Source: Bacteroidota bacterium (lineage in GTDB: Bacteria; Bacteroidota; Bacteroidia; Flavobacteriales; TMED113). From it: 64,000 nucleotides of DNA. The notes under the pieces were generated by a model, which was not told where the DNA came from, ran no database searches, and saw nothing but the letters and a program-made list of their open reading frames with translations. Positions 2,654 to 20,997 of this stretch are shown here, one piece after another; the first letter of the stretch is position 1, and the number at the start of each line of letters is the position of its first letter. The position numbers and the translations under genes were made by a program. The stretch is taken from NCBI GenBank assembly GCA_036158635.1, contig JAYYFR010000010.1, positions 13,138 to 77,137 on the forward strand. Direction: 5' to 3'.

Positions 2654-2727
2654 GGGCCCATAGCTCAGCTGGTTAGAGCACTTGACTCATAATCAAGGGG
2701 TCGCTGGTTCAAGCCCAGCTGGGCCCA
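2654..2727 (+). tRNA. tRNA with CAT anticodon, probably tRNA-Ile2 (lysidine-modified) rather than elongator Met; not an initiator
   Basis: Cloverleaf read by hand. Acceptor GGGCCCA/TGGGCCC plus discriminator A. D-arm TAGCTCAGCTGGTTAGAGCA. Anticodon stem-loop CTTGA-CTCATAA-TCAAG. T-arm GCTGGTTCAAGCCCAGC. The C4-G69/C5-G68 pairs and the T-arm resemble E. coli ileX. The anticodon stem lacks the three G-C pairs of an initiator. Confidence 0.9.
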
Positions 2728-2753
2728 CAAAAAAATTGCCAATTTTACTACTG

Positions 2754-3365
2754 ATGAACAAAAAACATAATAAAGAAGAAGTCCTAAACAGTGGAATGAA
2801 TTTGTTTTGGAAAAAAGGTTACAAGTCTGTTGGAATTAATGAAATATGTAATGTTACAGGCATGACTAAAGGCGCATTTTATAATAAATTTAAAGGTAAA
2901 GAACAATTTCTGAACGAAACAATCGAATTATACGGAAAAATTAATTCACAACTGATTAAAGAATACTTTCAGAGTCTTAATAAACTTTCTAATTATGAAA
3001 AATTATTAAAATTTTATTCTGATCTTTTTTTAAGACAACCAAAAATTAATTTTATTGGCTGTTTCATGAATAATATCATGTCAGAAATGGGAATATTAAA
3101 TAAGAAGATAGGTGAAGTTTCGTCTAAAGTATATGATAATTTTATTAATGATATTGAACCAATAGTAAAAAAAGCTCAAGATGAAAACGAAATAACTGAT
3201 ACTATAAATTCTAAAAATATAACAGAACTATTACAATCTTCTTATTATGGTGCTCTAACTAGAGCTCAAAGTTCAAAAAATTATAAAAAAGGAATTAGTA
3301 TAATAAAAATCTTACTCAGTAGCCTAAAACCAAATAATCATAATCTAAGATTGAAAAAAGGCTGA
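2754..3365 (+). CDS. TetR/AcrR family transcriptional regulator
   Basis: ORF 2682-3365 trimmed to the ATG at 2754 because the 5' extension runs through the tRNA. The N-terminal HTH KKGYKSVGINEICNVTGMTKGAFYNKFKGKEQF is a classic TetR signature. Confidence 0.85.
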   Translation: MNKKHNKEEVLNSGMNLFWKKGYKSVGINEICNVTGMTKGAFYNKFKGKEQFLNETIELYGKINSQLIKEYFQSLNKLSNYEKLLKFYSDLFLRQPKINFIGCFMNNIMSEMGILNKKIGEVSSKVYDNFINDIEPIVKKAQDENEITDTINSKNITELLQSSYYGALTRAQSSKNYKKGISIIKILLSSLKPNNHNLRLKKG

Positions 3366-3498: not shown

Positions 3499-6400
3499 AT
3501 GAAAAATACTATTCTATCCTCTATATCATTAATTTCATTTTTTTTATTTTTTTCACCCATTATTTCTTTTAGTCAAGATGTTGACTGTACTGAATCAAAC
3601 ATTGGATGTATGGATGAAATTGCTTGTGACTACAACCCCGATGCATTGTGCCCGGGAGAATGTAATTATGATTGCTATGGTTGCCTTGATCCTGAAGCTT
3701 GCAATTACAATCCAAACGCCACACTATCTTATAATTATTGCGCATACACCGACCTAGGATGTGGTTGTGGATTTCCAGCTGCAGAACCAGGATACGATTG
3801 TTACGGAAATTGCATAGTAGATGAAAATGGCGATGGAATCTGTGATGAAATTTATGGATGTACAGATCCAATTGCACCTAATTATGTTCAAGAAGCAAAC
3901 ATTGATGATGGATCTTGTGAAGAGGTAATATATGGTTGTATAAATCCATTCGCTGAAAATTTTGATGAAAATGCAAATACTAATGACGGAAGTTGCGAGT
4001 TAATTGGATGCATGTCAGAGGGGGCTTTAAATTATTCTGAAGCAGCAACCATTGATAACGGTGACTGTGTTTGGTTAGAACCGGTTGTTGAAAACACATG
4101 TAACGGAAGATACCTTGATAAAATATTTCCTGAAGTAGAAGTTGAAACGGTTACTTACTCAGATATTTATGGTTTACAACTTGATATTTATACTGGAGTT
4201 GGAGATACAATTGTTGAAGACAGACCTCTTATAGTATATATTCATGGAGGTGCCTTCATTTCTGAATTTGGAGACAGAACTGGTCCTCAAGCAACTTATG
4301 TGGCCACTGAAATGGCACAAAGAGGATATGTTGTTGCATCAATTGACTACAGAAAAGCGAGTTTATTTCAAATTCTTTGTGGAGGGTTATGTGATCAAGG
4401 TTTTGGAGATATAACTCCCTGGGCTCCATGGCAATATTGGGACTACATTGGTGACCATATAGGAAAAGCCTTTAGTGACTCTAAAGCAGCAATTAGGTAT
4501 TTTAGAAAATCTGTTGCAGAAAATAATCCTTATAGAATAGATCCAAACCATATATATGTGGGGGGGCACTCCGCAGGGGGAATTATTTCGAACCATATTA
4601 TATTAGAAAGTAATGAAGATATTAACCCATCACATCCAATATATGATTACATAATGGATAATGGGGGATATTTTGGTGATAGTGGAAATTTTGGATTTTC
4701 ACATGATGTAGCAGGTGGTTTTCCTTTGGCAAGTGCTATTTTCCCAACTGATTTTAGTAATATAACTGAGGATGATTTTGATAAACTTTATATTTCTGTT
4801 CATGGTGAAGCTGATAATATTGTTCCTTATGGATTTGGTCAAATAATCCCTATTGTGTCTTTTCCTTTTTCTGGTTTAATATTTCCAAATTGCCAGGGTA
4901 GTGGAGCAATGTCTAACTATATGGATGATATAGGAATGGAAAATCATCACTTATCCTTCCAAGGAGACCCTTGGTTTACTGCCGGGCACAATTTTGAACA
5001 ATGGGGGCCAAATGGTCAAGAAGCTATGATTACTTTTGTAACCACTCACTTGTTCAACAACTTACCATGTTCTGCGGGGGACATTGGATGTACTGATGAA
5101 ACAGCATGTAATTATAGTCCGAGTGCAATAAACGATGATGGATCTTGTTCGCAAATAAGTGGATGTACAGACCCAAATGCTTGTAACTTTGATATCAATG
5201 CAGGATGTGATGATGGATCTTGTATTGGACTTGCCGGATGTATGGATGCAAATGCTTTCAATTACAATGAAATCGCAACTTGTCAGTTATCAAATGCATG
5301 TATTGAAATTATTGAGGGTTGCACTTATTTATACGCAAATAATTATAGCGAAATAGCAAATACTGATGATGGTAGTTGTCAAATAGAAGGCTGTACGGAT
5401 TCATCTGCATCTAACTACAACCCTGAGGCAACTGATGATAACGGATCGTGTTACTTCACCCCTGACTGTATACAAATAACAACTGAATTTATTAGTGAAT
5501 GTGGTTCTTATACTTGGTTTGAAGAAAATATTGACACTACTGGATTATATAGTCCTAGTTTTTTAAGCCCGATTAGTCCTGATTATGGAGGTTTTGATGT
5601 AGATATGTCCAATCCTTCTTCTTTATTAGTAGGAAAACCTGAAGAAAATAATAATGATGGTTTGATAAGTATGTATATAAGAAACGGAGATGAATGGATT
5701 CAAAAAGGTGATGATTTATTAGGGCAGGGTTTAGATAATTCAGAAATTGGAGATCAATTTGGTTTCTCAGTCGCTATGGGAGATGTTAATACAATTGCAA
5801 CTTCTTCTCCATATTCAGACTACATGTATACAGTTTGTGGAAACCCGTATTGGACAATTAATTGTGAATGGTCGTGCCCTGCTTGGCCATTTTGGTGTCC
5901 TGGTTTAATATGCTTTCCATCTTTCCAGCAAGACTGTGACAATATATATCAAAACAACAAAGGAATAGTAAATGTTTATAGTTGGGTGAATAATCAATGG
6001 GAATTAAAAGGAGAAACAATATGGGGGGAATTTGAAGAAGATTTTAGTGGGAATGAAATTGATATGGCAGACTCAAATACAATTGCAATCGGCTCGTCAA
6101 ATACTGGTCTTACAGAGTCTGGATTTATTGGTAATTTAAAAGTTTTCAGTTTTCAAGAAAATGGATGGGTTCAAAAAGGTGAAAATTTCTATGGTGAAGA
6201 AGGTGGAGATGAAGTTGGAAAGGGATTCAGTATGGGCGATAAAAATACCATTGCAATATCCTATAAAAATCAAAACAAAGTCAAAGTATTCGAGTGGAAT
6301 GGAAACGATTGGTTACAAAAGGGACCACCAATTATTGTAGGAAATTTAAGCCAATCAGTTTCAATGTTCAATAATTCTTCATTAGCAATTTCAGGAGATT

Positions 6401-9400
6401 CTCAAACAGAAGTTTATGATTGGAATGGCACTTATTGGGTAATAAAAGGCAGCCCTATTTTATTTTCTGGGGGTGAAAGTGTTAGTATGGGTGGACCAAA
6501 TACTATTTCGGTTACAAGCTCAGAGTCTATTGCTTTATTTAGATTTGAAAATGAAGAATGGTTACTAAAAACCCAAACATATAATAATCCTGGTACAGTT
6601 GTTATGGGTAACCCTAATATTCTTGCAATACCAGGTCAAGTGTTTGAGTATATTCCTGAAGTTAATGAGGACGGATGTCAGGAATTTACTATGATTAATT
6701 TAACTATTGATGACCCGGCCACTTCAGGTTGTACTAACCCTTTAGCTTGCAACTACGATGAAACTGCTATTTGTGATGATGGTTCATGCTCAGAAATAAG
6801 TGGGTGTACTGAACCCACTGCATGTAATTACAACCCAAATGCGGGTTGCGATGACGGTTCCTGCTCTGAAGTTAGTGGATGTACAGACCCAAATGCTTGT
6901 AATTATAATCCAGATGCAGGCTGTGATGATAACACCTGCTATAACAATGACTTGGGTTGTGGTTGTGATCAACCAGCAGCTGAACCAGGATATGATTGCT
7001 TCGGAAATTGCTTAACTGACTCAGATGGTGATGGAATATGTGATGAATTTGAAATACTTGGTTGTTTGGATGTTAACGCTTGTAACTATGACTCTAATCC
7101 TACAACAGACGAAGATAATTCTTTATGTAATTATTTGGATGGCATTTGTGATACATGTCTCAATGGAATTATTATCGATAATGATGCAGATAATGATGGA
7201 GTCTGTGATGACGATGAAGTATTAGGTTGCACTGATAATAACGCTTGTAACTATAATGAACTAGCCACTGAAAATGATAACACCTGTTATAATAATGATT
7301 TGGGTTGTGGTTGTGATCAACCAGCAGCTGAACCAGGATATGATTGCTTCGGAAATTGCTTAACTGACACAGATGGAGATGGAATTTGTGATGAATTTGA
7401 AATACTTGGTTGTTTAGATATTAACGCTTGTAACTATGACTCTAATCCTACAACAGACGAAGATAATTCTTTATGTAATTATTTAGATGGTATTTGTGAT
7501 ACATGTGTTAATGGAATTATTATCGATAATGATGCAGATAATGATGGAGTCTGTGATGACGATGAAGTATTAGGTTGTACTGATGATAGTGCATGTAACT
7601 ACAATGAATTAGCTACAAATGGTTATGATGACTGGTATCTTCCTTCATATGATGAACTTTATTTAATGTATCAAACCATAGGGCAAGGTTCTGATAATAT
7701 AGCACAGTTTGGTAATGGTTGGTATTGGTCTTCTACATATGGTTATGGTAACCCTGAATCAGGAATAAATGTTGTAGTAAATATGAGCAATGGAAATACT
7801 TACGGACAAGGTTTTTATAATTCTGACATTGTAAATGTGAGACCAATCAGAAGTTTTAATACAAATTCAACTACACTACCTAATATTGGCGATTTTTATG
7901 AAGGGGGTATAGTTTTTGATATTAATGATGATGGAACCGGCCTCGTTGCAAATTTAAGTGACTTAGAAAGTTCAAACTACTCCACAGCAATTGATAATAT
8001 TAGTAATTATACTGCAGAAAATGACGTAATCTGCGATTATGAGTCATGCGTTGGTTGTATGGATACAAATGCATGTAATTATGATGAAACCTTTACCCAA
8101 GCTAATAACTTAGAGTGTAATTATTTAGATGGGATTTGTGATACATGTGTTAATGGAATTATTATCGATAATGATGCAGATAATGATGGAGTCTGTGATG
8201 ACGATGAAATATTAGGTTGTACTGATGATAGTGCATGTAACTACAATGAATTAGCTACTGAAAATGATAACACCTGCAATTACTTGGAACCTTATTTGGA
8301 AGGTATTGACAATATTGATTTCACAATAGAAAACTGTGACTTGTTCTCTGATCAAGTCTCAAATCCAGAAGACTGGCCATATGCATTTGTAGCTACTGGT
8401 CCATGGCAACCAAATAGTAATTTAGCACAAAATTTTGTAATTAATATTAATTCTTTACCACCGGGAGGAGCTAATTATCGGGTTGTAAAAACAGTTGCTA
8501 ATGGTAATTGGGATGTAGGTCCAACTACACCATTAAATTTAGGTTTTAATTATATGAATGTGGAAGAAGTTGATTATGAAAGAATTGTACGTTTTACTTT
8601 TTCAAGTGGTGAAATTGGATTTGATAGTATATTTCTAAATGATATAGAACAAAATTGTAATATATACTTATACGATTGTGATAATAACTGCTTTAATGAT
8701 TTAGATGGCGATGGCATTTGTGATGAATTAGAAATAACTGGTTGTACAGATAGTGCAGCGTGCAATTATGATAATACTGCTACAGATGATGATGGTAGTT
8801 GCTTATTAGGTTATCAATCTTTTACTTTAGTTCTTTATGACTCTTATGGAGACGGTTGGGCAGCAAATAATGGACAAACCCATACCTTGTCGATTAACGG
8901 TTCAATTTATGGTAATGATTTTACAGATGGAACAATAGCAAGTTATATTGGTGGTGATCAATTATCATATGAAATATGTTTAAATACTCAAGAATGTAAT
9001 ATTTTTGATTTTTCAGATAATGGCCAATACGAAAATGAATGTTCCTGGGAATTATATGATGAAAATAGTACTTTGGTTTTAAGCTCTGGACCTTCTATAC
9101 TTACAAATCAGTACCTAGGTGATTTATGTTTTGGGTGTACAAGTCCAATTGCATGCAACTACGATTCAAATGCTCTTGTAAACGATATAAATGATCCATG
9201 TATTTTTCCAAGTTTTGGTTATGACTGTAATAATAATTGCATAAATGATTCAGACGGTGATGGTGTTTGTAATGTATTTGAAATTATTGGATGTCAAGAT
9301 CAAACGGCATGTAATTACAACCCAGAGGCAACTGATCAGGGACCCTGCACATATACCGATGGAATATGTGAAGACTGTATTGGTGGAATTATAATTGATA

Positions 9401-11895
9401 ATGATTTAGATAATGACGGTGTGTGTAATAATGATGAAATACTTGGTTGCCAAGATTTAAATGCTTGTAATTATAATCCAGATGCCACAGATGAAGCTAC
9501 TTGTATTTATTTAGATGGAATTTGTGATTCGTGCTTTAACGGAGTTATAATTGACAATGATGCTGATAATGATGGTGTTTGTGATAATGATGAAGTTGCA
9601 GGTTGTCAAGATTTAAGCGCTTGTAATTACAACCCTGTTGCTACTGATGATGATAATTCTTGTTTTTATCCTGCAGAACAATATCTTGACTGTTATGGGA
9701 ACTGTATTAATGATGGCGATGGTGATGGAATCTGTAACGAATTAGAAATTCTTGGTTGTACTGACGCTAACGCATGTAACTATGATTTTAATTCAACAGA
9801 AAATGATGGTTCTTGTACATACTCTGTCGTTGGTTTAGATTGCTTTGGAAATTGTATAAATGATTTAGATAATGATGGTGTTTGTGATGAAAATGAAATC
9901 TTGGGATGTACAAACCCAAGTGCTGTTAACTTTAATAATTTAGCAACCGAGGATAACAATTCATGTGATTTTGGTCCATTCGGAGAAATAAACGAGACTG
10001 ATTGTATAATGACTATTGTTTTTTCTGAAGACTTTAGCTTAAGTTATGGTAATCAAGTCTTTTCTGAAGGTTGGATTGGTGTTACAGACGCAGATGGAAA
10101 TATCTATGGTTCAACATTTTGGTCGGAAGGTCAAAATAATTCTATCATGGTATATGGATCTAATATTAATAATGAAGGTATCGCATACAATGAAGAATTA
10201 AATTGGATTTTTTCATTTAATAATAACAATATTATTATGTCCCCTGTTTATGGTTTTGCAGACGGAATTTTTTCTTGTAGTGATTTAGCTATAATTGAGT
10301 CACTGTCCTCTGATCTACCTGGTTGCCTTGATGGCGAGGCATTTAATTTTAATAACCTTGCAAATATTGATGATAATTCATGTGATTATGGGCCTTGGGA
10401 CGAAATACCTAACACTGATTGTAATATGACTATATTAATTCCTGGAGACGCAAATATTTCAATTGACGGAGAGCAAATACTTGATGCATGGATTGGCTTA
10501 TCTGACTCTGATGGGAATATTTGTGGAAGTACTTATTGGACTTACGGAGAAACTGGCGCAATTGCAGCATGGGGAGAAGATGATGGCACATTTGGATTTG
10601 AAGTTGGTGAAACCATTAATTGGATTATTTCTACTCCTGAAGGAGATTTATTTGGTAATGCATCATTATCTTTTGGTAGCAATGAATATGCTTGTAATGC
10701 TTTGGCTGGAATTAATTCGATTGACTTTGGTTTACAAAATTATACTCAAGAAATTGAACTATATACCGGATGGAATATGTGGTCAACATATATTGAGCCA
10801 CAAAATAATAACATTGAAAATTTATTCTCTGGAGTTAGTAATAATTTATTAATTGTTAAAGACGAAAATGGTTCTGTTTATTGGCCACTTTTTGGCTTAA
10901 ATACTATTGGAGATTTAACTAAAGGAAAGGGTTATCAAACAAAAATGTCAAATGATGATGTTTTAATTGTTGAGGGTAATTTGATTCCTTCTAATTATTC
11001 TTTCAATATACCAATTGGATGGAGTATAATTGGATATTTACATACTACTTGCTATAACGCAAGTGACATGATGTCACCACTAGCTAATCAAATCATTATT
11101 TTAAAGGACGAAAGTGGTTTAGTTTTTTGGCCGACTTTTGGTTTGAATACTATTGGAGATATGTGTCCAGATAAAGGGTACCAAATCAAAATGTTGGAAG
11201 AATCTGTATTTAATTATCCAAGCTATTCAAGATTTGGTTACTCCAATATTGACATCATTGACAAAACAGTTTACTATGATGAGGCTAAAAATACAGGAAA
11301 TAACATGATAATTGGACTTCCAATTGAATCTTGGAATACTCTACCAAAAATTGGTGATGAAATCGCAGCATATGATAATGTCGGAAATTTAGTTGGTAGC
11401 ACAACGTTTAATGGAGATCACATCGCTTTAACTGTTTGGGGAAATGATGCCACAACAAATGTTAAAGATGGTTTGTACGAAAACGAAGAATTAGTTTTCC
11501 GAGTTTGGAGTTCTGATCAAAATGAGGAATATTCAATGAGAATCACTAATTGGCAGAGTGGAAGTAATATTTATATAACTGATAATATAAATATTGCATC
11601 CAATATTGTAATTGACACAGTAAATAAAAATGATTTATCAATTTTATTTCAAAATTCACCAAATCCGTTTAGTGAATCAACAAAGATTGAATTTTTTGTG
11701 CCCAAAAAATGTTTAATTAATTTTACTTTACACAATATAATGGGAGAAAAAATTAAAACTATTTCTAATTCAGAATTTGAATCAGGTAATCACGAAATAA
11801 TATTTAGACCAGACAACTTAAGTCCAGGTACTTATTTTATTAACATGCAAACTAAAAATTATACTAAAACTTTAAAGATAAACCTAACGAAATAA
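3499..11895 (+). CDS. Giant (2798 aa) secreted multidomain protein, T9SS cargo: Cys-rich modules, alpha/beta-hydrolase esterase, beta-propeller-like repeats, DUF1566-like module, T9SS C-terminal domain
   Basis: Uninterrupted 8397-nt ORF. Signal peptide ends at FSQ/D. Esterase motifs are HGGAF (H249) and GGHSAGG (S358, nt 4570-4572). Six W-x-x-K-G repeats span aa 733-1021. DUF1566 motifs are DWYLPSYDEL, YWSST and VRPIRSF. The C-terminus NSPNPFSESTKIEFFV...GTYFINMQT matches a type-A T9SS sorting domain. Confidence 0.9.
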   Translation: MKNTILSSISLISFFLFFSPIISFSQDVDCTESNIGCMDEIACDYNPDALCPGECNYDCYGCLDPEACNYNPNATLSYNYCAYTDLGCGCGFPAAEPGYDCYGNCIVDENGDGICDEIYGCTDPIAPNYVQEANIDDGSCEEVIYGCINPFAENFDENANTNDGSCELIGCMSEGALNYSEAATIDNGDCVWLEPVVENTCNGRYLDKIFPEVEVETVTYSDIYGLQLDIYTGVGDTIVEDRPLIVYIHGGAFISEFGDRTGPQATYVATEMAQRGYVVASIDYRKASLFQILCGGLCDQGFGDITPWAPWQYWDYIGDHIGKAFSDSKAAIRYFRKSVAENNPYRIDPNHIYVGGHSAGGIISNHIILESNEDINPSHPIYDYIMDNGGYFGDSGNFGFSHDVAGGFPLASAIFPTDFSNITEDDFDKLYISVHGEADNIVPYGFGQIIPIVSFPFSGLIFPNCQGSGAMSNYMDDIGMENHHLSFQGDPWFTAGHNFEQWGPNGQEAMITFVTTHLFNNLPCSAGDIGCTDETACNYSPSAINDDGSCSQISGCTDPNACNFDINAGCDDGSCIGLAGCMDANAFNYNEIATCQLSNACIEIIEGCTYLYANNYSEIANTDDGSCQIEGCTDSSASNYNPEATDDNGSCYFTPDCIQITTEFISECGSYTWFEENIDTTGLYSPSFLSPISPDYGGFDVDMSNPSSLLVGKPEENNNDGLISMYIRNGDEWIQKGDDLLGQGLDNSEIGDQFGFSVAMGDVNTIATSSPYSDYMYTVCGNPYWTINCEWSCPAWPFWCPGLICFPSFQQDCDNIYQNNKGIVNVYSWVNNQWELKGETIWGEFEEDFSGNEIDMADSNTIAIGSSNTGLTESGFIGNLKVFSFQENGWVQKGENFYGEEGGDEVGKGFSMGDKNTIAISYKNQNKVKVFEWNGNDWLQKGPPIIVGNLSQSVSMFNNSSLAISGDSQTEVYDWNGTYWVIKGSPILFSGGESVSMGGPNTISVTSSESIALFRFENEEWLLKTQTYNNPGTVVMGNPNILAIPGQVFEYIPEVNEDGCQEFTMINLTIDDPATSGCTNPLACNYDETAICDDGSCSEISGCTEPTACNYNPNAGCDDGSCSEVSGCTDPNACNYNPDAGCDDNTCYNNDLGCGCDQPAAEPGYDCFGNCLTDSDGDGICDEFEILGCLDVNACNYDSNPTTDEDNSLCNYLDGICDTCLNGIIIDNDADNDGVCDDDEVLGCTDNNACNYNELATENDNTCYNNDLGCGCDQPAAEPGYDCFGNCLTDTDGDGICDEFEILGCLDINACNYDSNPTTDEDNSLCNYLDGICDTCVNGIIIDNDADNDGVCDDDEVLGCTDDSACNYNELATNGYDDWYLPSYDELYLMYQTIGQGSDNIAQFGNGWYWSSTYGYGNPESGINVVVNMSNGNTYGQGFYNSDIVNVRPIRSFNTNSTTLPNIGDFYEGGIVFDINDDGTGLVANLSDLESSNYSTAIDNISNYTAENDVICDYESCVGCMDTNACNYDETFTQANNLECNYLDGICDTCVNGIIIDNDADNDGVCDDDEILGCTDDSACNYNELATENDNTCNYLEPYLEGIDNIDFTIENCDLFSDQVSNPEDWPYAFVATGPWQPNSNLAQNFVININSLPPGGANYRVVKTVANGNWDVGPTTPLNLGFNYMNVEEVDYERIVRFTFSSGEIGFDSIFLNDIEQNCNIYLYDCDNNCFNDLDGDGICDELEITGCTDSAACNYDNTATDDDGSCLLGYQSFTLVLYDSYGDGWAANNGQTHTLSINGSIYGNDFTDGTIASYIGGDQLSYEICLNTQECNIFDFSDNGQYENECSWELYDENSTLVLSSGPSILTNQYLGDLCFGCTSPIACNYDSNALVNDINDPCIFPSFGYDCNNNCINDSDGDGVCNVFEIIGCQDQTACNYNPEATDQGPCTYTDGICEDCIGGIIIDNDLDNDGVCNNDEILGCQDLNACNYNPDATDEATCIYLDGICDSCFNGVIIDNDADNDGVCDNDEVAGCQDLSACNYNPVATDDDNSCFYPAEQYLDCYGNCINDGDGDGICNELEILGCTDANACNYDFNSTENDGSCTYSVVGLDCFGNCINDLDNDGVCDENEILGCTNPSAVNFNNLATEDNNSCDFGPFGEINETDCIMTIVFSEDFSLSYGNQVFSEGWIGVTDADGNIYGSTFWSEGQNNSIMVYGSNINNEGIAYNEELNWIFSFNNNNIIMSPVYGFADGIFSCSDLAIIESLSSDLPGCLDGEAFNFNNLANIDDNSCDYGPWDEIPNTDCNMTILIPGDANISIDGEQILDAWIGLSDSDGNICGSTYWTYGETGAIAAWGEDDGTFGFEVGETINWIISTPEGDLFGNASLSFGSNEYACNALAGINSIDFGLQNYTQEIELYTGWNMWSTYIEPQNNNIENLFSGVSNNLLIVKDENGSVYWPLFGLNTIGDLTKGKGYQTKMSNDDVLIVEGNLIPSNYSFNIPIGWSIIGYLHTTCYNASDMMSPLANQIIILKDESGLVFWPTFGLNTIGDMCPDKGYQIKMLEESVFNYPSYSRFGYSNIDIIDKTVYYDEAKNTGNNMIIGLPIESWNTLPKIGDEIAAYDNVGNLVGSTTFNGDHIALTVWGNDATTNVKDGLYENEELVFRVWSSDQNEEYSMRITNWQSGSNIYITDNINIASNIVIDTVNKNDLSILFQNSPNPFSESTKIEFFVPKKCLINFTLHNIMGEKIKTISNSEFESGNHEIIFRPDNLSPGTYFINMQTKNYTKTLKINLTK
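6931..7626 (+). repeat. In-frame tandem duplication, 2 x 348 bp (116 codons), inside the giant ORF
   Basis: Manual alignment of 6931-7269 against 7279-7617 gives 21 mismatches in 339 nt, mostly synonymous third positions. Confidence 0.9.
8116..8280 (+). repeat. Third, partial copy of the 348-bp unit; its first 143 nt are nearly identical to 7474-7616
   Basis: 8116-8258 against 7474-7616 has 2 mismatches in 143 nt by manual alignment. The offset is 642 nt, which is 214 codons and in frame. Confidence 0.9.
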
Positions 11896-11939
11896 CTTTA
11901 TTAAGAAATTATTTTGTTTTTTTAATAAAAAATTAAACT

Positions 11940-12443
11940 ATGAAATTAATACTTAAAATTCTTTTTTTTACAATTGTGACTAATTTAAGCTACTCACAAG
12001 AAACAGTTTGTGATTGTGTTGAAATTGGAATTCAAACTTTCAAAATGATTGAAAGTGGAACTTCTGAAGAAGAGACACAAAAAATCTTTGAGAAAAAAAA
12101 CAATAAGTGTATGGAAATCAAAAATAAACTCGGAAATGATTTTGAAAAAAAAATGACAGGTTGCGAAAACTTCAAAGATCTAATTAAAATTACAACTGGC
12201 TTAATTGGAAATTCTGAAGTTAACCCTGAAGTATGTGAATGCGTTGATTTTTCTATCGAGACTATGGAACTTATGAAGAAAGGTATCACCGAAAAAGAGC
12301 TTGAAAAAAAGTATAAAAGCAAACGAGACATTTGTGAAAAATTAAATTCCGATTTAGGAGCTGAAAATTTTGGAATGCAAATGATGAATTGTGAAAATTT
12401 CAGTCAATTAATGGAACTTATGTTATCTGAGCAAGACAACTAG
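11940..12443 (+). CDS. Small secreted protein with an internal duplication of a 4-Cys, roughly 62-aa unit; function unknown
   Basis: 167-aa ORF starting 44 nt after the giant ORF, with no terminator seen between them. Signal peptide ends LSYSQ/E. The repeats VCDCVEIG...C...GCENFKDL and VCECVDFS...C...NCENFSQL align. Confidence 0.7.
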   Translation: MKLILKILFFTIVTNLSYSQETVCDCVEIGIQTFKMIESGTSEEETQKIFEKKNNKCMEIKNKLGNDFEKKMTGCENFKDLIKITTGLIGNSEVNPEVCECVDFSIETMELMKKGITEKELEKKYKSKRDICEKLNSDLGAENFGMQMMNCENFSQLMELMLSEQDN

Positions 12444-13718
12444 TTAAGCTATCTTAATTACAAAATAATTTTTTTTTCCTTTCTGAAATAAAAGATACTT
12501 ATCATTTAGCAAGTCTTTGATATTTATTTTTTTATTCAAGTCTATTTTTTCTTTATTTAGGCTGATTGCGTTTGATTGTAACATTCTTCGCAGCTCACCT
12601 TTTGATTTGAAAATAGGTGCTTTTTCTGTTAAAAGGCTAAGTACATCAATATCTTTATATAAAATTTCTTTAGAAATCTCATAAGTCGGAACGCCTTCAA
12701 AATACATTAAGAAATCTTTTTCGGACACTTTTTCTAATATCTCTTTAGTTTTTGAGCCAAATAAAATTTTACTACCTTCTAAAGCCTTTTCATATAAATC
12801 TTTTCCATGTATTCTAATTGTCATTTCTTTTGCAAGTTCATTTTGAAGAATTCTTAAATGAGGTTCATTATCATGACTATCTTCAATGTTTAATATTTCA
12901 TCCTTTTGCTTAACAGAAAAAAATCTTATACATTTCTTAGCATCTTCATCAGAAATATTTAACCAGTACTGAAAAAATTTATAAGGTGAAGTTCTGTTTG
13001 GATCTAACCAAACATTTCCATCTTCAGTCTTGCCAAATTTAGTACCATCAGATTTTGTTAAAAGAGGACAGGTAAGCGCATAACTATTTTTATTTTCTTT
13101 TTTTCTTATTAATTCAATCCCTGTTGTAATATTACCCCATTGATCTGAGCCGCCAATTTGAACAGCGCAATTATTATTATTAAGCAAATGAAGAAAATCG
13201 TAAGCTTGAACTAATTGATATGAAAATTCTGTGAATGAAATACCAGATTCCATTCTATTTTTCACGGAATCCTTGGATAACATATAGTTAATTGTAATAT
13301 ACTTTCCTATATTTCTTAAAAATGAATTAAAGTTCATTGATTGCATCCAATCTAAATTATTTACAAATTCAGCATGATTTTTTTTTGTTTCAAAATCTAA
13401 AAATTTTTGTAACTGTTTTTTTATTGAAAGTAAATTAGAATTTATTTCATCGGCATCTAATAATTGCCTTTCATTAGATTTTCCAGAAGGATCACCTATC
13501 ATTGCAGTAGCTCCTCCAAGAAGTAAAATTGGTTTATGTCCATAATTCTGAAAGTGAGTTAACAGCATCACAGGCGCCAAATTACCAATATGTAAAGAAG
13601 AAGCAGTTGGGTCAAATCCAACATATGCAGAACAAACTCCAGATGATAAATATTCTTTTAAACCTGGGGTTAAATCATTTATCATCCCCCTCCACTTTAA
13701 CTCGTCAATGAAATCCAT
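12444..13718 (-). CDS. tyrS: Tyrosine--tRNA ligase
   Basis: ORF 12444-13763 trimmed to the ATG at 13718 (MDFIDELKWRG). Has the HIGN motif (SLHIGNL), the KMSKS-equivalent KFGKT and an S4-like C-terminus. Confidence 0.92.
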   Translation of the reverse strand: MDFIDELKWRGMINDLTPGLKEYLSSGVCSAYVGFDPTASSLHIGNLAPVMLLTHFQNYGHKPILLLGGATAMIGDPSGKSNERQLLDADEINSNLLSIKKQLQKFLDFETKKNHAEFVNNLDWMQSMNFNSFLRNIGKYITINYMLSKDSVKNRMESGISFTEFSYQLVQAYDFLHLLNNNNCAVQIGGSDQWGNITTGIELIRKKENKNSYALTCPLLTKSDGTKFGKTEDGNVWLDPNRTSPYKFFQYWLNISDEDAKKCIRFFSVKQKDEILNIEDSHDNEPHLRILQNELAKEMTIRIHGKDLYEKALEGSKILFGSKTKEILEKVSEKDFLMYFEGVPTYEISKEILYKDIDVLSLLTEKAPIFKSKGELRRMLQSNAISLNKEKIDLNKKINIKDLLNDKYLLFQKGKKNYFVIKIA

Positions 13719-13781
13719 ATTTTTTATTTTTGTAAAAATATAAATTATAGTATGGAATAACATAATTTTATAAAATTAGAA

Positions 13782-14753
13782 ATGAAAAATATTTTTTTAA
13801 CAGGTGGAACAGGATTTTTAGGAAGTCATATATTATATGAACTATCTATTCTTGAATATAATATTACTGCTATAAAAAGAAAAAAAAGTGATTTGAGTTT
13901 AATTAAAAATTTATTTTTAATTAACAATCAAGAACATAAATTCAAAAAAATTAAATGGATTAATTGTGACATTACTGATCTTTTTAAATTAGAAAGTTTA
14001 ATCTGTAAAAATGATATTGTTATTCATTGTGCTGGTTATATCTCGTTTGAAAAAAGAAAAAAAAATCAAATTTTTGATATCAATTATTATGCTACAAGAA
14101 ATTTAGTTAACATCTGTTTAAAAAAGCAAATTTCAAAATTTTGCTACATAAGTTCAATTGCAACTTTATTTAATAAAAAAAACTCCATAGCAGATGAAAA
14201 TAGTTGGTTTTCAAATTCCAATACAAAATCATATTATGCCAAATCTAAATATATGGGAGAGATGGAGGTCTGGAGAGGTTTCGCTGAAGGCCTAAATGGT
14301 TTTATTATTAATCCATCTTTAGTTATAGGCCCCGGTGATAAAAATAGTTTATTTGGAAAAATGATTTCAAAATTAAAAAAAAGAACTTTATTCTACCCTG
14401 GAGGGGGTACAGGTTTTGTAGATGTAAGAGACGTCTCAAGCGTAATGATAAAACTTATAAATAAAAAAGTTAATCACAAAAGATATATAATTAACAGCCA
14501 AAATTTGAGCTTTAAAGAGCTTCTAACTATATATGCTAAACAAGTAAACGGACCTATTCCATCGATTAAAATCAATAATAATATAATTAAAATCGCTATT
14601 CTTCTAAGTAAAATATTTAATCCTTATAATAACTTAAGTTTTAGCATGGTTGACTTTTTTAAAACAAAATCAAGATACAGTAATTTAAAAATAAAACAGG
14701 AATTAAATTATAAGTTTATTTCTGTTCAGAGATCTATTATTGATATTATTTAA
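13782..14753 (+). CDS. NAD-dependent epimerase/dehydratase (extended SDR) family protein
   Basis: 323-aa ORF with the Rossmann motif TGGTGFLGSH at the N-terminus and YxxxK as YAKSK. Confidence 0.8.
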   Translation: MKNIFLTGGTGFLGSHILYELSILEYNITAIKRKKSDLSLIKNLFLINNQEHKFKKIKWINCDITDLFKLESLICKNDIVIHCAGYISFEKRKKNQIFDINYYATRNLVNICLKKQISKFCYISSIATLFNKKNSIADENSWFSNSNTKSYYAKSKYMGEMEVWRGFAEGLNGFIINPSLVIGPGDKNSLFGKMISKLKKRTLFYPGGGTGFVDVRDVSSVMIKLINKKVNHKRYIINSQNLSFKELLTIYAKQVNGPIPSIKINNNIIKIAILLSKIFNPYNNLSFSMVDFFKTKSRYSNLKIKQELNYKFISVQRSIIDII

Positions 14754-14755
14754 AA

Positions 14756-15073
14756 TTATTTATTATCCTCAATTTCAGCTTGAAACTCCTTTAATAATAA
14801 CTCGAAATCTGATAAGTTATTTATATAGTAATTTAGTTCTTTATTGTAATCATCCTCAGATAAGTTATTTTTTTTAAATATTTCTTCTCTCAAAATTTTG
14901 TACGTAGAATCATTCAAATTTCCTAATTCATACTTTACATTTAAATACTCTAAATCCTTAAAAATTTTAGCAAAATCTTCACTATACATTTTCTTCTTAT
15001 CAACTAAATTTGAACAAGAAAAAAAATTAATGTTAAGAATTAAAAGTAAGCAAAGAACCCATTTTATTTTCAT
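14756..15073 (-). CDS. Small lipoprotein (DUF4296-like by size and position next to dihydroorotase)
   Basis: ORF 14756-15085. The lipoprotein signal MKIKWVLCLLLILNINFFSC starts at the ATG at 15073. The family call rests on my memory of gene context only. Confidence 0.55.
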   Translation of the reverse strand: MKIKWVLCLLLILNINFFSCSNLVDKKKMYSEDFAKIFKDLEYLNVKYELGNLNDSTYKILREEIFKKNNLSEDDYNKELNYYINNLSDFELLLKEFQAEIEDNK

Positions 15074-16361
15074 TAAACTTTCCATTTTTATATACTAAAT
15101 TTCCATTTATAAAAGTATGAGTGATTTTATACTTCAAAACTCTTCCTTCAAACGGAGACCAACCACACTTATATAATAAATTATGTTTTGCTATTTCGTA
15201 CTTTGATTTATCAAATAACACTAAGTCTGCATAATAACCCTCTTTTATGTATCCTCTTTTATTTACTTTAAAACACTTGGCGGGAGCATGGCACATCTTA
15301 TTTACAAGTTCTTCCAGTTTTATTTTGCCATTAGACATATGTTCTAACATAATAGGCAAAGAATGTTGTACTAACGGCCCCCCAGAAGGAGATTCTAAAT
15401 ATTTATTTTGTTTTTCTGAAATTGTATGTGGAGCGTGATCTGTTGCTATTATATCCAATCTGTTATCTAATAATCCTTTCCATAAAGCATCATTGTCTTT
15501 TTTTGTTTTAACTGCTGGATTCCATTTTATTAAAGATCCTAAATTTTTGTAATCTTCATCTGTAAATGATAGGTGGTGAACACATACTTCAGATGTAATT
15601 CTTTTTTCTTCTAAAGGAATTTGATTTGTAAATAAATCTAATTCCTCCATAGTCGAAATGTGAAGAACGTGTAATCTAGTATTATATTTTTTTGCTAAAC
15701 TAACAGCAAGATCTGATGACTTAAAACAAGCTTCTCTAGATCTTATAATTGGATGTTGATCGAATGGAATATTTTGTCCAAATTTTACTTTTGCTTTTGA
15801 AATATTTTTTTTAATTGTTTCTTCATCTTCGCAATGAGTCGCGACTAAACCTTCACATTTTGAAAAAATATTATTCAAAGTTGTGAAATCATCAACTAGC
15901 ATATTTCCTGTTGAAGATCCCATAAATATTTTTAAGCCAGGGCAAGTTTTAAAATCAATTTTTAATACCTCTTCTAAATTGTCATTAGATGCACCAAAGA
16001 AAAAAGAAAAATTGGCCAGAGAGGTGTTTTTTCCTATTTCTATTTTTTGTTCAAGCAATTCCTTTGTTAAAGTTTGAGGAATTGTATTTGGCATTTCCAT
16101 ATAAGAGGTAATTCCACCGGCTACAGCAGCACGAGACTCTGAGAAAATATTTGCCTTATGAGTTAAACCAGGCTCTCTAAAATGTACTTGATCATCAATT
16201 ACTCCCGGAATTAAATAACATTCATTGGCATCAATAATATTGTGGTTTTTACTATCAATGTTTTTTGCAACTTTTGATATTAATTCTTTTTCAATTAAAA
16301 GGTCACCTTCAATTATATTTCCTTCGTTAACTATTTTTGCGTTTTTAATTAATGTTCCCAT
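15033..16361 (-). CDS. pyrC: Dihydroorotase (amidohydrolase superfamily)
   Basis: 442-aa ORF. Metal-binding motif VIDDQVHFREPG, plus TDHAPH and the overall amidohydrolase pattern. Confidence 0.85.
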   Translation of the reverse strand: MGTLIKNAKIVNEGNIIEGDLLIEKELISKVAKNIDSKNHNIIDANECYLIPGVIDDQVHFREPGLTHKANIFSESRAAVAGGITSYMEMPNTIPQTLTKELLEQKIEIGKNTSLANFSFFFGASNDNLEEVLKIDFKTCPGLKIFMGSSTGNMLVDDFTTLNNIFSKCEGLVATHCEDEETIKKNISKAKVKFGQNIPFDQHPIIRSREACFKSSDLAVSLAKKYNTRLHVLHISTMEELDLFTNQIPLEEKRITSEVCVHHLSFTDEDYKNLGSLIKWNPAVKTKKDNDALWKGLLDNRLDIIATDHAPHTISEKQNKYLESPSGGPLVQHSLPIMLEHMSNGKIKLEELVNKMCHAPAKCFKVNKRGYIKEGYYADLVLFDKSKYEIAKHNLLYKCGWSPFEGRVLKYKITHTFINGNLVYKNGKFNENKMGSLLTFNS

Positions 16362-17172: not shown

Positions 17173-17180
17173 TATATTTG
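17173..17180 (+). promoter_or_regulatory. Candidate -7 promoter box (TATATTTG) for the LTD / TonB receptor / endonuclease operon
   Basis: Exact TAnnTTTG match 24 nt upstream of the ATG at 17205. Confidence 0.35.
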
Positions 17181-17204
17181 GACACATCACTAATTTATAT
17201 TGTT

Positions 17205-18191
17205 ATGAAAAAACTTTTACTTGTTACTCTTTTTTTATTTACAAATTCATTTGGTCAAGAATGCTCTCAATTATTCTTTTCAGAATATGTAGAGGGTTGG
17301 TCAAATAATAAGGCACTGGAAATTTATAATCCTACTTCAGAATCTATTGACTTGTCGTCCTATTCTATTTCTAGGTACGCTAATGGGGGGACAACACCAA
17401 GTACTACTCAGCTAACTGGAATTATTAATGCATATGAAACATTTGTTGTATGTTTAGATAAACAAGATCCTAACGGTGAAGGTTATGAAGCTCCTGTATG
17501 GGACGGGTATTTTACTTACATTGATTCACTTACAAATGAAGAAGTTACAATTTATGATGAAGAAACAGATTTACAAAGTAAAGTAGATTTGTTTTTAAAT
17601 CCCATTTATTACTTTGGAACTGATCCTGATTCAGCTGCTGCTTTTCCAACTACTATGTATTTCAACGGAAATGACGCTATAACTCTAGAATTATTAGGTA
17701 CTGGTATAGTTCTTGACTTAATTGGTAAAGTTGGTGAAGACCCAGGTGCATCATGGAATGATTCAGAAGGAAATTATTGGACTAAAGATCATACATTAAT
17801 TAGAAAACCTTTCATTTCTCAAGGTGTTTCTATGAACCCAACTTTATTTGACCCAACTTTAGAATGGGACTCACTACCTGTTAATTCATTCATGAATCTA
17901 GGTTTTCATGACTGTGATTGTAATATAAACTCTGAACTTAATGAATTAAATAATAATTTGGAAATTTATCCAAATCCTACTAATGGAAAAAAACAGGTTT
18001 ATATTTCAAATGATTATGTGATTAAAGAATTATTATTAATAGACCAGTTAGGTAAAGTAATTTCAATCCAAAAAGCTGATAATACTAGAACATCTATTGA
18101 TATTTCTAAATATTCATCTGGTCTGTACTTTATTTCAATTATTGATAAATATGGGATCAAAACTAGACCTATTATATTAAAAAATGAATAA
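17205..18191 (+). CDS. Lamin-tail-domain (LTD) protein with T9SS C-terminal sorting domain; no catalytic domain seen
   Basis: ORF 17178-18191 trimmed to the ATG at 17205 (MKKLLLVTLF signal peptide). LFFSEYVEGWSNNKALEIYNPT...NGNDAITLE...DLIGKVGEDPG...TLIRK matches the LTD found at the N-terminus of ExeM/Xds-type nucleases. The C-terminus LEIYPNPTNG...GLYFISI is a T9SS domain. Confidence 0.75.
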   Translation: MKKLLLVTLFLFTNSFGQECSQLFFSEYVEGWSNNKALEIYNPTSESIDLSSYSISRYANGGTTPSTTQLTGIINAYETFVVCLDKQDPNGEGYEAPVWDGYFTYIDSLTNEEVTIYDEETDLQSKVDLFLNPIYYFGTDPDSAAAFPTTMYFNGNDAITLELLGTGIVLDLIGKVGEDPGASWNDSEGNYWTKDHTLIRKPFISQGVSMNPTLFDPTLEWDSLPVNSFMNLGFHDCDCNINSELNELNNNLEIYPNPTNGKKQVYISNDYVIKELLLIDQLGKVISIQKADNTRTSIDISKYSSGLYFISIIDKYGIKTRPIILKNE

Positions 18192-20994
18192 ATATTTTGT
18201 ATTAATATTTTTTTTATGTTTTCATTTTTTATTTAGTCAAAATGAATTACCAATTGTTTTTGAAGGCATTGTTATTGATAAAAACTCTTCAGAGACTCTT
18301 CCTTTAGCTAACATTATCATAAATGATGCTTCGGGTAAAATGATTTCTGGAACTACAGCAAATACATTTGGAGAGTTTCAATTTTTATTAAGCCCAAACA
18401 ATTCTAAAATAACTATTACTGTCTCTTACATTGGCTATAAAGATTATAAAAAAACTTTAGAGCTAAGCTCAAATGATAAACTCACGATAAAAATGTCAAC
18501 TGAAGAACTAAATGTTGTAAATATAATTAGTGACCAGGCAGAGTTTAGAAAAACACCTGTTTCTTTAAGTAATGTTAAACTTGAAAAAATTGAGAGAGAA
18601 TTAGCTGGTCAAGAGATCCCAATGTTATTAAATTCAACTCCAGGTGTATACGCAACACAAACTGGGGGTGGTGATGGAGATGTTAGAATAAATATTAGGG
18701 GCTTCAATCAAAGAAATGTTGCAGTTATGATTGATGGTGTACCTATGAATGATATGGAAAATGGCTGGGTTTACTGGTCAAATTGGTTTGGGTTAGATGG
18801 TTTAACTCGAACAATACAAGTTCAAAGAGGCTTAGGTGCATCGAAATTAGCTTTACCATCTGTTGGCGGGACTATAAATATAATAACAAAAGGAGTTGAT
18901 GCTAAAGAAGGGGGAAGAATAAAACAAGAAATAGGTAATGGAAATTCCTTAAGGACATCTTTATCATATACTACAAGAGATTTTAAAATTGGAAAATTCA
19001 ACTTTGCTACATCTTTTAAAAGATCTGATGGTTTAATTGACCAAACCTCATCAATGGGGTTTTTCTATTATTTAAAGTGGCAAAAACAATTTAAAAACCA
19101 CATATTTTCTTTGTCTGCCTTTGGTGCTCCACAAGAACATGATCAACGAAAATACCAGACTGGAATGGCAGTTTATGACAAAGAATATGCTGCTGAACAA
19201 GGTGTTGACACATTATCTTTAGAGGGGGGATACGGATTAACATACAATCCAAATTGGGGTACATACAATGATTACGAAGTTATTTTTGAAAATGGGCTAG
19301 CTGTCGATACAATTAATGGAACTAAACAATATGTTAACAGGTTTAAAAATTATTATCATAAACCAAACTTTAACTTTCAACATTTATGGAATATTAATGA
19401 AAAATCCTCATTAACAAACGTTCTTTATTATTCCACAGGGCATGGAGGGGGCACTGGCCTTCACGGTGGAATGCTAACATATACACCAAATAATCAAATT
19501 AACTTTCAAAATATTTATGATGTTAACCACGGAAATATTTGGAATTCATTTATTAATCCTGGTGGACCTGCAATTGATTTAGCATATAGTGAAACAGAAA
19601 AAAAATCGACTAGTATTTTATATTCCTCCATAAATAATCACTATTGGGGTGGCTTACTTTCTACATACAATCACAAAATAAATAATAATTTTGATTTAGC
19701 ATCGGGTATTGATTTAAGAACATATAGAGGAGAGCATTACAGAGAAGTCTATGATTTGTTAGGCGGAGACTACTATGCTGGATCATTAGGTTCTGGCTCA
19801 AAAAATTCAGTCGGGGAAAACTCCAGTAATTTAATTTTAAGAGAGGGTGATAAGATGTATTATCACAATGACGGTTTAGTTAGATGGTATGGTGCTTTTG
19901 GTCAATTAGAATACAACTACAAAGATATTTCTGCTTTCATTAATATTACAGGTTCGCAAACTTTGTATAAAAGAGTTGATTACTTCAAAAAACAAGATTT
20001 AGTTCTTTCAGATACTATTTTTACTCAGGCTATTGGTATAAATGATACAATAATATATAACGGAAAAGAATACACATCTGATTCTAAAGAAACAAGGTAT
20101 ACTGAAACAAATTGGGAGAAATTTCCTGGATTTACTTTCAAGACTGGAGCTAACTGGAATATTGATGAATCTAACAATATTTTCGTTAATTCTGGAATCC
20201 TGTCCAAAGCTCCAAGATTTAATAATGTATTTAATTATGATAACGAAACATATTTTAATACTAAAAATGAAATTGTAAAAGCAATTGAATTTGGCTATGG
20301 TTATAAGTCTAATAAATTCTCTTTAAACTTAAATATATATAATACTGCGTGGGAAAATAAACCGCAATCTGGGACCACTGTTCTTGATGGAGGTGAAACA
20401 GCATCTTATAATATCAATGGCATTAATGCTCTCCACCAGGGAATAGAATTAGATTTTGCTTGGAAAATTTCAAAGTCATTTAAATATGAATTTCTTAGTT
20501 CAATTGGAAATTGGAGATGGAATTCAGGAGATACTGTAAACTTTTACTTAAATCAACAACTAATTGAAAGTGATTATTTTGACGCTAGAGGAGTATCGGT
20601 TGGGGACTCACCACAAACTCAAATTGGTTCTAGTGTTAGTTATAATTACAAACTAAGTAAAAATACGAGAGGTTATATTAAATTAAAAGGTATTTACTCT
20701 GACAGATTTTTTTCTGACTTTGATCCATTTACTTTAAATGAAGAAAAAACTGTTTGGCAAATTCCAGGCTATGCTCTATTTAGTTTACACATGGGGCAAA
20801 ATATTTATTTTAAAGATTCTTCCATCAATTTAAAACTTAATGTTTTAAATTTATTTAATACTACTTACATTAGTGATGCTCAAAATAATTCAAGTTATGT
20901 TGAAGACTCACCAATGAATTCTGACGCTTCCTCAGCATCGGTTTTTTTTGGTATGCCACGAAGAATAATTGCTTCAATTGAATATAAATTTTAA
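18184..20994 (+). CDS. TonB-dependent receptor with N-terminal carboxypeptidase-regulatory-like domain
   Basis: 936-aa ORF. CarbopepD_reg-like segment GIVIDKNSSETLPLANIII...VSYIGYK, plug motif IRGFNQRNVAVMIDGVPMND, long beta-barrel, terminal EYKF. The start overlaps the upstream stop by 8 nt. Confidence 0.88.
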   Translation: MNKYFVLIFFLCFHFLFSQNELPIVFEGIVIDKNSSETLPLANIIINDASGKMISGTTANTFGEFQFLLSPNNSKITITVSYIGYKDYKKTLELSSNDKLTIKMSTEELNVVNIISDQAEFRKTPVSLSNVKLEKIERELAGQEIPMLLNSTPGVYATQTGGGDGDVRINIRGFNQRNVAVMIDGVPMNDMENGWVYWSNWFGLDGLTRTIQVQRGLGASKLALPSVGGTINIITKGVDAKEGGRIKQEIGNGNSLRTSLSYTTRDFKIGKFNFATSFKRSDGLIDQTSSMGFFYYLKWQKQFKNHIFSLSAFGAPQEHDQRKYQTGMAVYDKEYAAEQGVDTLSLEGGYGLTYNPNWGTYNDYEVIFENGLAVDTINGTKQYVNRFKNYYHKPNFNFQHLWNINEKSSLTNVLYYSTGHGGGTGLHGGMLTYTPNNQINFQNIYDVNHGNIWNSFINPGGPAIDLAYSETEKKSTSILYSSINNHYWGGLLSTYNHKINNNFDLASGIDLRTYRGEHYREVYDLLGGDYYAGSLGSGSKNSVGENSSNLILREGDKMYYHNDGLVRWYGAFGQLEYNYKDISAFINITGSQTLYKRVDYFKKQDLVLSDTIFTQAIGINDTIIYNGKEYTSDSKETRYTETNWEKFPGFTFKTGANWNIDESNNIFVNSGILSKAPRFNNVFNYDNETYFNTKNEIVKAIEFGYGYKSNKFSLNLNIYNTAWENKPQSGTTVLDGGETASYNINGINALHQGIELDFAWKISKSFKYEFLSSIGNWRWNSGDTVNFYLNQQLIESDYFDARGVSVGDSPQTQIGSSVSYNYKLSKNTRGYIKLKGIYSDRFFSDFDPFTLNEEKTVWQIPGYALFSLHMGQNIYFKDSSINLKLNVLNLFNTTYISDAQNNSSYVEDSPMNSDASSASVFFGMPRRIIASIEYKF

Positions 20995-20997
20995 ACT

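Follow-up and report, generated by a model that had tools for sequence, protein, structure and literature searches.

A giant modular type IX secretion cargo protein of a Flavobacteriales bacterium as a possible calcium-binding surface fibre

Introduction

What kind of protein is encoded by a single 8.4-kb gene in the genome of a Flavobacteriales bacterium, and what might the cell use it for? The gene in question lies at 3499..11895 on the forward strand of a 64,000-nt stretch of DNA from an uncultured, low-GC marine Bacteroidota bacterium of the TMED113 lineage (GenBank assembly GCA_036158635.1, contig JAYYFR010000010.1, positions 13,138 to 77,137), which is referred to below as the window; all nucleotide coordinates are those of the window, and all modules of the gene product are encoded on its forward strand. 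The product of 2,798 amino acids (aa), hereafter the giant protein, is identical to GenBank MEC8537480.1, located on an 83.6-kb contig, which bears only the automatic name "T9SS type A sorting domain-containing protein" after the type IX secretion system (T9SS). A literature search returned no description of the giant protein, its relatives or its modules. The original prediction, made from the letters of the window before any database search, regarded it as a mosaic T9SS cargo and guessed at a surface stalk that displays an enzyme. The present analysis points to a related reading, to which a probability of roughly 0.55 is assigned, namely that the giant protein is a Ca-binding, disulfide-bonded surface fibre displaying an esterase and binding modules. 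Much of the protein consists of repeat modules outside the domain databases; current concepts are left unchanged, the giant protein being a well-documented, uncharacterised example of a known protein kind.

Overall architecture and the C-terminal tail

In the open reading frame (ORF) listing of the window, the gene is a single ATG-start ORF of 2,798 codons without interruption, as had been predicted, and given the 28% GC content of the window and the AT-rich stop codons, a frame of such length is not attributable to chance. The product is strongly acidic, with 451 Asp and Glu against 62 Lys and Arg, and contains 152 Cys. Its two ends are those of a secreted T9SS cargo. A Sec signal peptide (aa 1–25, 3499..3573) of the expected form is predicted by reading the N-terminus, MKNTILSSISLISFFLFFSPIISFSQD, which runs from charged residues into a hydrophobic core and on to SFS-QD, and the orthologues carry an N-terminus equivalent to it. 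At the other end, the type A sorting domain (aa 2713–2798, together with the stop codon 11635..11895) passes the TIGR04183 cut-off of 23 bits with a score of 26.6 and models as a beta-sandwich; a single-sequence PDB search with the domain gave no match. Both signals agree with the earlier claims, and the combination of an N-terminal signal peptide with a C-terminal beta-sandwich sorting domain of about 80 aa (TIGR04183) is the one found in type A cargo such as the gingipains and the Flavobacterium johnsoniae ChiA and RemA. The giant protein differs from these in being far larger, in consisting to a large extent of Cys/Ca and other modules without a family model, and in having a conserved beta-sandwich cassette of about 440 aa before the sorting domain.

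The region preceding the sorting domain, aa 2157–2712 (9967..11634), appears from AlphaFold, Foldseek and homologues to be a string of beta-sandwich domains in the order C1, a Cys-rich knot of the ACNY type described below, C2, C3, C4 and C5. The AlphaFold model of the C-terminal 642 aa, based on a 54-sequence alignment, has a predicted local distance difference test (pLDDT) score of 84.4 and is all-beta, with approximately six beta-sandwich domains in addition to the sorting domain. In a Foldseek search with the tail model the best match was the adhesin extender 6xi3, and complement and alpha2-macroglobulin MG-domain arrays as well as the SdrD B domains were also matched. The modelling of the C-terminal 640 aa as a chain of serial beta-sandwiches like those of adhesin extenders thus supports the surface fibre, and the earlier guess of a stalk displaying an enzyme would fit it. 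The domains C3 and C4 share the conserved motif KDENGxVYWPxFGLNxIG...GxGYQxKM.

The tail has 111 homologues at E<=0.001, many of them spanning aa 2273–2798. This cassette (aa ~2273–2798, 10315–11892), which comprises the ACNY knot, C2–C5 and the sorting domain, is common to more than 80 other proteins whose N-terminal parts differ and include SprB repeats, LTD, trypsin, GH16 or PKD domains, and of those that are complete at the C-terminus most end in the T9SS domain.

Cysteine-rich and calcium-loop repeats

A motif scan of the giant protein found 25 knots of the GCxDxxACNY type and exactly 12 Asp-rich loops of the form DxDxDG[IV]C[DN], the latter count in agreement with the dozen or so DxDxDG(I/V)CD loops noted in the original prediction. 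An alignment of 50 sequences gives the consensus of the combined Cys/Ca unit as GCTDxxACNYxxxAxxDDGSC, six residues, and YDCxGxCLxDxDGDGVCDExEI, and the unit of ACNY knot (GCxDxxACNY...DDGSC) and Ca loop is without a Pfam or NCBIfam model. By motif scan, the N-terminal Cys-rich block (aa 27–195, 3577..4083) holds four ACNY-type knots, a GCGC motif, one Ca loop and 20 Cys, whereas block 2 (aa 525–672, 5071..5514) has four knots matched by the regular expression and a degenerate fifth at aa 606–627. Block 3 (aa 1061–1373, 6679..7617) holds a tandem duplication of 348 nt (116 aa), block 4 (aa 1513–1596, 8035..8286) was delimited by motif scan and Cys count, and a single 48-aa unit of Ca loop and ACNY knot stands at aa 1723–1770 (8665..8808). 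In block 6 (aa 1877–2156, 9127..9966), six ACNY knots alternate with five Ca loops. The Cys-rich stretches are located where they had been placed from reading the sequence, except that one module, at aa 2274–2296 within the tail, had been missed.

The Asp-rich loops were originally likened to thrombospondin type 3 repeats. The DxDxDGxxDxxE loop, present here 12 times with conserved Cys, is indeed common to the TSP3 families (PF02412, PF18884) and to the Ca site of the anthrax protective antigen (PA) and C2-II toxins (PF03495); in the giant protein, however, the knot found between successive loops is of another kind, GCxDxxACNY...DDGSC, and all Pfam scores are below cut-off. Membership in the thrombospondin type 3 family was rejected, as TSP3_bac reaches 21.7 bits against a cut-off of 25 and the 50-sequence unit profile retrieves no thrombospondin chain from the PDB even at E<=10, and the likeness, judged from sequence, is one of motif and not of family. 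The weak PDB matches that the unit profile does have are to the Ca site of the C2/PA toxins and to a chain named 'EF hand protein'. A two-Cys version of the knot, GCTDxxxxNYxxxANxDDGSC (e.g. aa 119–140), gives a non-significant match to residues 332–357 of mammalian MPEG1/perforin-2 (E 0.23), which is a lead only. The AlphaFold model of one Cys unit (aa 1126–1263) has a pLDDT of 80.6 and is compact, with regular secondary structure nearly nil.

The units are widespread. The first homologue search gave 788 proteins at E<=1e-10, and a 280-aa query containing one Cys/Ca unit matched 4,980 cluster representatives (50% identity) among 1.84 billion proteins, mostly via the 48-aa unit; as the Cys unit dominates that search, the number gauges the spread of the unit, and the search yields few relatives of the modules U1 and U2 described below. 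Some of the homologues with shared Cys modules also have SprB repeats (PF13573), which brings up the explanation that the giant protein is an SprB/RemA-like adhesin moved by the gliding machinery. It is large and repetitive and has a T9SS signal, as such an adhesin would, but Pfam and NCBIfam scans detected neither SprB repeats nor a type B sorting domain in it, and the window's sole gliding-related match, a GldE-like protein, scores 197.7 bits against a cut-off of 376, so that a role in gliding is considered very unlikely.

The N-terminal esterase and beta-propeller

Two modules are placed among the Cys-rich blocks of the N-terminal head. The first, at aa 196–524 (4084..5070), was predicted to be an alpha/beta-hydrolase esterase, which is borne out by scores above cut-off for both BD-FAE (48.5 bits, cut-off 26.8) and Abhydrolase_3 (33 bits, cut-off 25). 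With the esterases of these hormone-sensitive-lipase-like families, e.g. the Thermogutta enzyme 5AO9, it shares the HGG oxyanion motif (aa 249–251), the GxSxG nucleophile (Ser358 in GGHSAGG) and the triad residues Asp439 and His497; all three motif segments align to 5AO9 in a profile search, and the four motifs are invariant across four orthologues. It differs from them in being very divergent, in its insertions, among them one with a Cys pair at aa 294–298, and in being embedded in a giant putative fibre. The domain is probably an active serine esterase.

The second module, at aa 673–1060 (5515..6678), is assigned from homology and repeat count as a beta-propeller of the FG-GAP_2 type. It has 196 homologues at E<=0.001, and among the best 120 of these nearly all contain PF14312 and most contain PF18962, the best E-value being 8e-78. 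The module's own PF14312 score is 14.7 bits and below the cut-off of 23, and membership therefore follows by transitive homology through homologues at E 1e-78 to 1e-21 that are nearly all positive for the family. The closest counterparts are stand-alone Bacteroidota proteins of about 490–610 aa that consist of an FG-GAP_2 propeller and a T9SS domain, have a consensus of seven repeats in common with the giant protein and are 28–35% identical to it. A propeller-like region had originally been noted, but with six repeats; reading of the sequence reveals seven V-x-M...N-T-I strands and six WxxKG linkers, which together with the seven-repeat family consensus suggests seven blades. Unlike in the stand-alone proteins, the predicted propeller of the giant protein is internal and one of its blades has a 40-aa insertion (aa 776–815, 5824–5943) that is rich in Cys, Trp, Pro and Phe and has six Cys. 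The insertion is common to the orthologues and absent from the stand-alone family, and it may be a binding knob.

Modules of the middle region

Between the head and the tail, three further modules are interspersed with the Cys-rich blocks. The module at aa 1374–1512 (7618..8034) had been described as a rearranged DUF1566 domain. It has the motifs GYDDWYLPS...EL...YWSS...VR.IR and IGD..GGIVF..DGTGL of the DUF1566 or Legionella Lcl C-terminal domain (PF07603), but its two halves are swapped: in canonical copies (P0344, P0348) the N-part IGD..GGIVF..DGTGL precedes the C-part GYDDWYLPS...VR.IRSF, while in the giant protein the C-part comes first. The native sequence scores 27–32.1 bits with Lcl_C, below the cut-off of 34.9, and the re-permuted sequence scores 34.9, which is exactly the cut-off; by the order of its motifs, the lectin-like module is a circular permutation. 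Among the orthologues it is found in this species only and is absent from P0001, L005, SP39 and P0002.

Several regions could not originally be assigned to a family, and these have been partly resolved as the beta-sandwich tail cassette and two modules termed U1 and U2. The U1 module of about 115 aa (aa 1597–1722, 8287..8664) matches no family model and recurs in tandem copies in other proteins, some with a terminal T9SS domain, that match Big_13, Big_14 and FN3-like families weakly; a profile of U1 found no match among PDB sequences. U2 (aa 1771–1876, 8809..9126), or the YGDGW module, is defined by an alignment with the invariant pattern D-x-x-G-D-G-W, C...C and E..W, and its profile gave nothing meaningful in Pfam or PDB sequences.

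The YGDGW module overlaps an allelic tract of about 300 nt (8734–9033, aa ~1750–1845), where conspecific copies diverge by approximately 40% at the nucleotide level; outside the tract they are 97–100% identical and gap-free over 1,113 aa. Two allele classes are present, A in the window and P0506 and B in P0241 and P0498, and within the tract there are 9 synonymous versus 12–15 non-synonymous changes per 30 codons. A diversity-generating retroelement was ruled out as the source of this variation, since synonymous changes are dense too, as would be seen if a divergent allele had been imported; the tract looks as though an exposed module carries an imported or balanced allele. The coexistence of two divergent alleles in genes that are near-identical elsewhere, together with the gain and loss of modules among close species and the presence of related giant genes in tandem in 1.6-Mb contigs, could also be read as traces of an arms race and not of substrate binding; in that case the fibre would be mainly a structural or protective coat, or a target or decoy for phages or grazers, and the esterase secondary. 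The strict conservation of the catalytic triad and the propeller across orthologues argues instead for selection on both enzymatic and binding function, and the coat or decoy explanation is judged improbable.

Integrity of the reading frame

Given its internal repeats, the long ORF could in principle be an assembly chimera or a decaying pseudogene. The tandem duplication in block 3 (6926–7225 versus 7274–7573) has 96% nucleotide identity, and further diverged copies of the unit are present elsewhere in the gene. In a conspecific TARA scaffold (L004), which matches the window at 3771–6914 and 8400–15712, a gap of 100 N covers 6915–8399 and thus falls exactly on the repeat zone, and in one 1.67-Mb contig gene calling splits the giant gene (P0511 and P0271). 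An independent protein from a metagenome-assembled genome (MAG), P0498 (MDA9726909.1), however, aligns without gaps to aa 510–2798 with 68 differences, and the junctions bordering the DUF1566 insertion recur, at one end or at both, in P0500 (TARA), P0501 (a scaffold of the GOS data), P0506, P0508 and P0511. Five independent conspecific assemblies agree in the repeat zone and the junctions. A back-translated pattern over the junction had no match in the JGI metagenome contigs, and the junction is present in ENA, NCBI, TARA and GOS proteins. Full-length orthologues of 2,674–2,790 aa exist in other species as well. A chimera at the DUF1566 insertion, plausible from the gap in the TARA scaffold, was consequently ruled out by independent assemblies with both junctions and equal length, among them the GOS scaffold, and an artefactual or decaying ORF in general is regarded as extremely unlikely; a chimera had been named at the outset as one of the outcomes that would overturn the prediction. 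Short-read assemblies are prone to break at 6915–8399, and many database entries of the giant gene are fragments.

Proposed role of the giant protein

Family knowledge and composition are the basis for inferring how the giant protein is exported and anchored, that it binds Ca and is rigid, and what its substrate may be; a role in the environment is proposed. The Sec system would export it via the N-terminal signal peptide, and it would fold in the periplasm, where the 152 Cys would probably form about 70 disulfide bonds, before the C-terminal type A sorting domain carries it over the outer membrane. It would most likely remain attached to the surface through its C-terminal end, with the beta-sandwich domains as the stalk nearest to the cell. 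In the acidic middle, some 25 disulfide knots (GCxDxxACNY...C) alternate with the 12 DxDxDGxCDxxE loops, which in seawater would be expected to take up Ca2+ and keep the chain extended. At its far end the fibre would present the probably active serine esterase and the seven-bladed FG-GAP propeller, with U1, the YGDGW module and the lectin-like permuted DUF1566 module arrayed along its length. Such a fibre would likely serve to bind organic matter in polymeric or particulate form and strip ester groups from it. Attachment to particles or algal surfaces, the example given in the original prediction, may be among its functions. A comparison of orthologues showed that the head (signal peptide, Cys block, esterase, Cys block and propeller) and the tail are conserved and that the middle gains and loses modules, as expected of a spacer or display region.

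The closest analogues in overall design appear to be the giant Ca-stiffened adhesins, among them LapA, SiiE and the ice-binding adhesin of Marinomonas primoryensis (6xi3), which likewise combine a serial beta-sandwich extender and many putative Ca sites with distal modules for ligand binding. Those adhesins rely on type I secretion, RTX repeats and uniform immunoglobulin (Ig)-like repeats, whereas the giant protein has a T9SS signal, the opposite polarity with an N-terminal tip, disulfide knots and a catalytic domain. No RTX nonapeptide repeats, type I secretion signal or uniform Ig-like extender repeats were matched in it by Pfam or NCBIfam, and only the fold of the tail resembles the extender.

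Several results weigh against the surface fibre. Foldseek found no PDB match for the model of the Cys unit, a search that is weak for small folds poor in secondary structure, and a rod-like geometry of the repeats is accordingly an assumption. The Ca-loop families, Binary_toxB as well as TSP3_bac, all score below cut-off on the giant protein, and the unit profile, as mentioned, fails to retrieve thrombospondin. The esterase is far from solved enzymes (best PDB profile E 2e-8), and the sorting domain reaches 23.3 bits with PF18962, below the cut-off of 27. No gene of the T9SS machinery is present among the scanned ORFs of the 64-kb window; two further sorting-domain proteins are encoded there, at 17178–18191 and 20998–23211, from which it appears that the organism uses the T9SS. 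Finally, type A cargo can be released instead of anchored, and some of it, e.g. the F. johnsoniae chitinase, leaves the cell as a soluble protein.

The giant protein might then be a released exoenzyme, a soluble esterase with binding modules, with the sorting domain cut off after export and the Cys/Ca modules acting only as protease-resistant linkers. Such release is established for the family, and the window shows no anchoring signal besides the sorting domain itself. On the other hand, a diffusing protein of 2,798 aa would be costly for a planktonic cell with a small genome, and the conserved beta-sandwich tail, common to proteins with differing N-terminal parts, looks like an attachment stalk; the cassette preceding the T9SS signal may be a general stalk of this kind. 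The released exoenzyme is considered unlikely, and the anchored, Ca-binding fibre is preferred.

Conservation of the gene and its neighbourhood

The giant gene is flanked by a TetR-family regulator (2682..3365, forward strand; TetR_N 40.5 bits) and a gene for a small secreted protein of 167 aa (11940..12443, forward strand), which adjoins it, has two 4-Cys repeats (CxC...C...C) and has no Pfam match; both neighbours are as originally described. The local gene order, ABC exporter, glyoxalase, thioesterase, TetR, giant gene, small 8-Cys protein, tyrosyl-tRNA synthetase (TyrRS, reverse strand) and epimerase, recurs in the single amplified genome AG-333-I18 (L001), a 132-kb metagenome contig (L005) and a TARA scaffold, and the order TetR, giant gene, small Cys protein and TyrRS is kept in at least four related assemblies. 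In the MAG SP39, a TetR orthologue with 83% identity is found directly upstream of the cluster, so that TetR, a paralogue of the small protein and the giant gene stand together, and the genes further upstream differ.

Orthologues of the small protein (~165–190 aa) accompany the giant gene in L001 (8613–9107), L002 (8888–9406) and also L004, and in L005 a copy is present on each side of it (8836–9405 and 17494–17988). The small 8-Cys protein may be a dedicated partner of the giant protein, and it was not found beside two other giant Cys-module genes, in L010 and L011. These two contigs of 1.61–1.65 Mb (ENA ERZ28548084) carry further giant genes, for proteins of 1,486 to at least 2,416 aa, that adjoin P0068 and P0005, with three giant genes in a row in L011; both P0005 and P0068 have the Cys modules of the window protein. 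With contigs of about 1.6 Mb, such cells devote a notable share of their coding capacity to giant genes.

The GC content of the giant gene is 34% versus 24–29% in its flanks, and the GC content at third codon positions (GC3) is 0.196 compared with 0.16–0.21 in the neighbouring genes. The GC excess consequently sits in codon positions 1 and 2 and derives from the Gly-, Asp- and Cys-rich composition, not from foreign origin. A horizontally acquired island is ruled out by the neighbour-like GC3 and the synteny in relatives, and the description of the gene as the main accessory feature of the window does not hold, only its middle being variable; composition and synteny mark the gene as native and conserved, with plasticity confined to that middle part.

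The group of orthologues is a narrow one, as no more than two species representatives in a set of 185,579 genomes have the esterase head. An LTD domain and one further domain are present in the other orthologues and missing from the window protein. The 116-aa unit occurs in one or two copies, single in L005 and SP39 and double in P0001; the two copies in P0001 share residues that are absent from the window copies, and copies within a genome keep species-specific residues, which suggests concerted evolution or recurrent duplication.

A wider interpretation can be put forward tentatively, at odds clearly short of even: the ACNY knot and Ca loop unit would be an undescribed extracellular repeat fold used by streamlined marine Flavobacteriales for Ca-dependent surface fibres, the giant gene would be a conserved core-genome example co-inherited with TetR and a dedicated 8-Cys partner, and the YGDGW alleles would be under balancing selection for ligand specificity or by phage or grazer pressure.

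Other features of the window

At 17178–23211, an LTD and sorting-domain protein and an Endonuclease I and sorting-domain protein flank a TonB-dependent receptor. The trio recurs in L001 and may serve to scavenge extracellular DNA. Three sizeable ORFs have no NCBIfam match, at 41108–43114 (reverse strand, 668 aa), 45021–46496 (reverse strand, 491 aa) and 59264–60592 (forward strand, 442 aa), the 668-aa ORF being also without a Pfam match. Scans for sigma-70 promoters and terminators gave numbers of sites not above those in shuffled sequence, with a scan model that does not cover Bacteroidota promoters.

Significance

Defining the Cys/Ca repeat modules would improve the annotation of many 'hypothetical' marine proteins, as judged from the approximately 5,000 cluster-representative matches. 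Among the major consumers of algal organic matter are uncultured planktonic Flavobacteriales, some of whose genomes appear, from contigs of that length, to be only about 1.6 Mb in size. The present lineage nevertheless retains a gene of 8.4 kb at a conserved location, and related genomes have several similar genes in tandem, so that the fibres probably matter for the encounter of these cells with their substrates.

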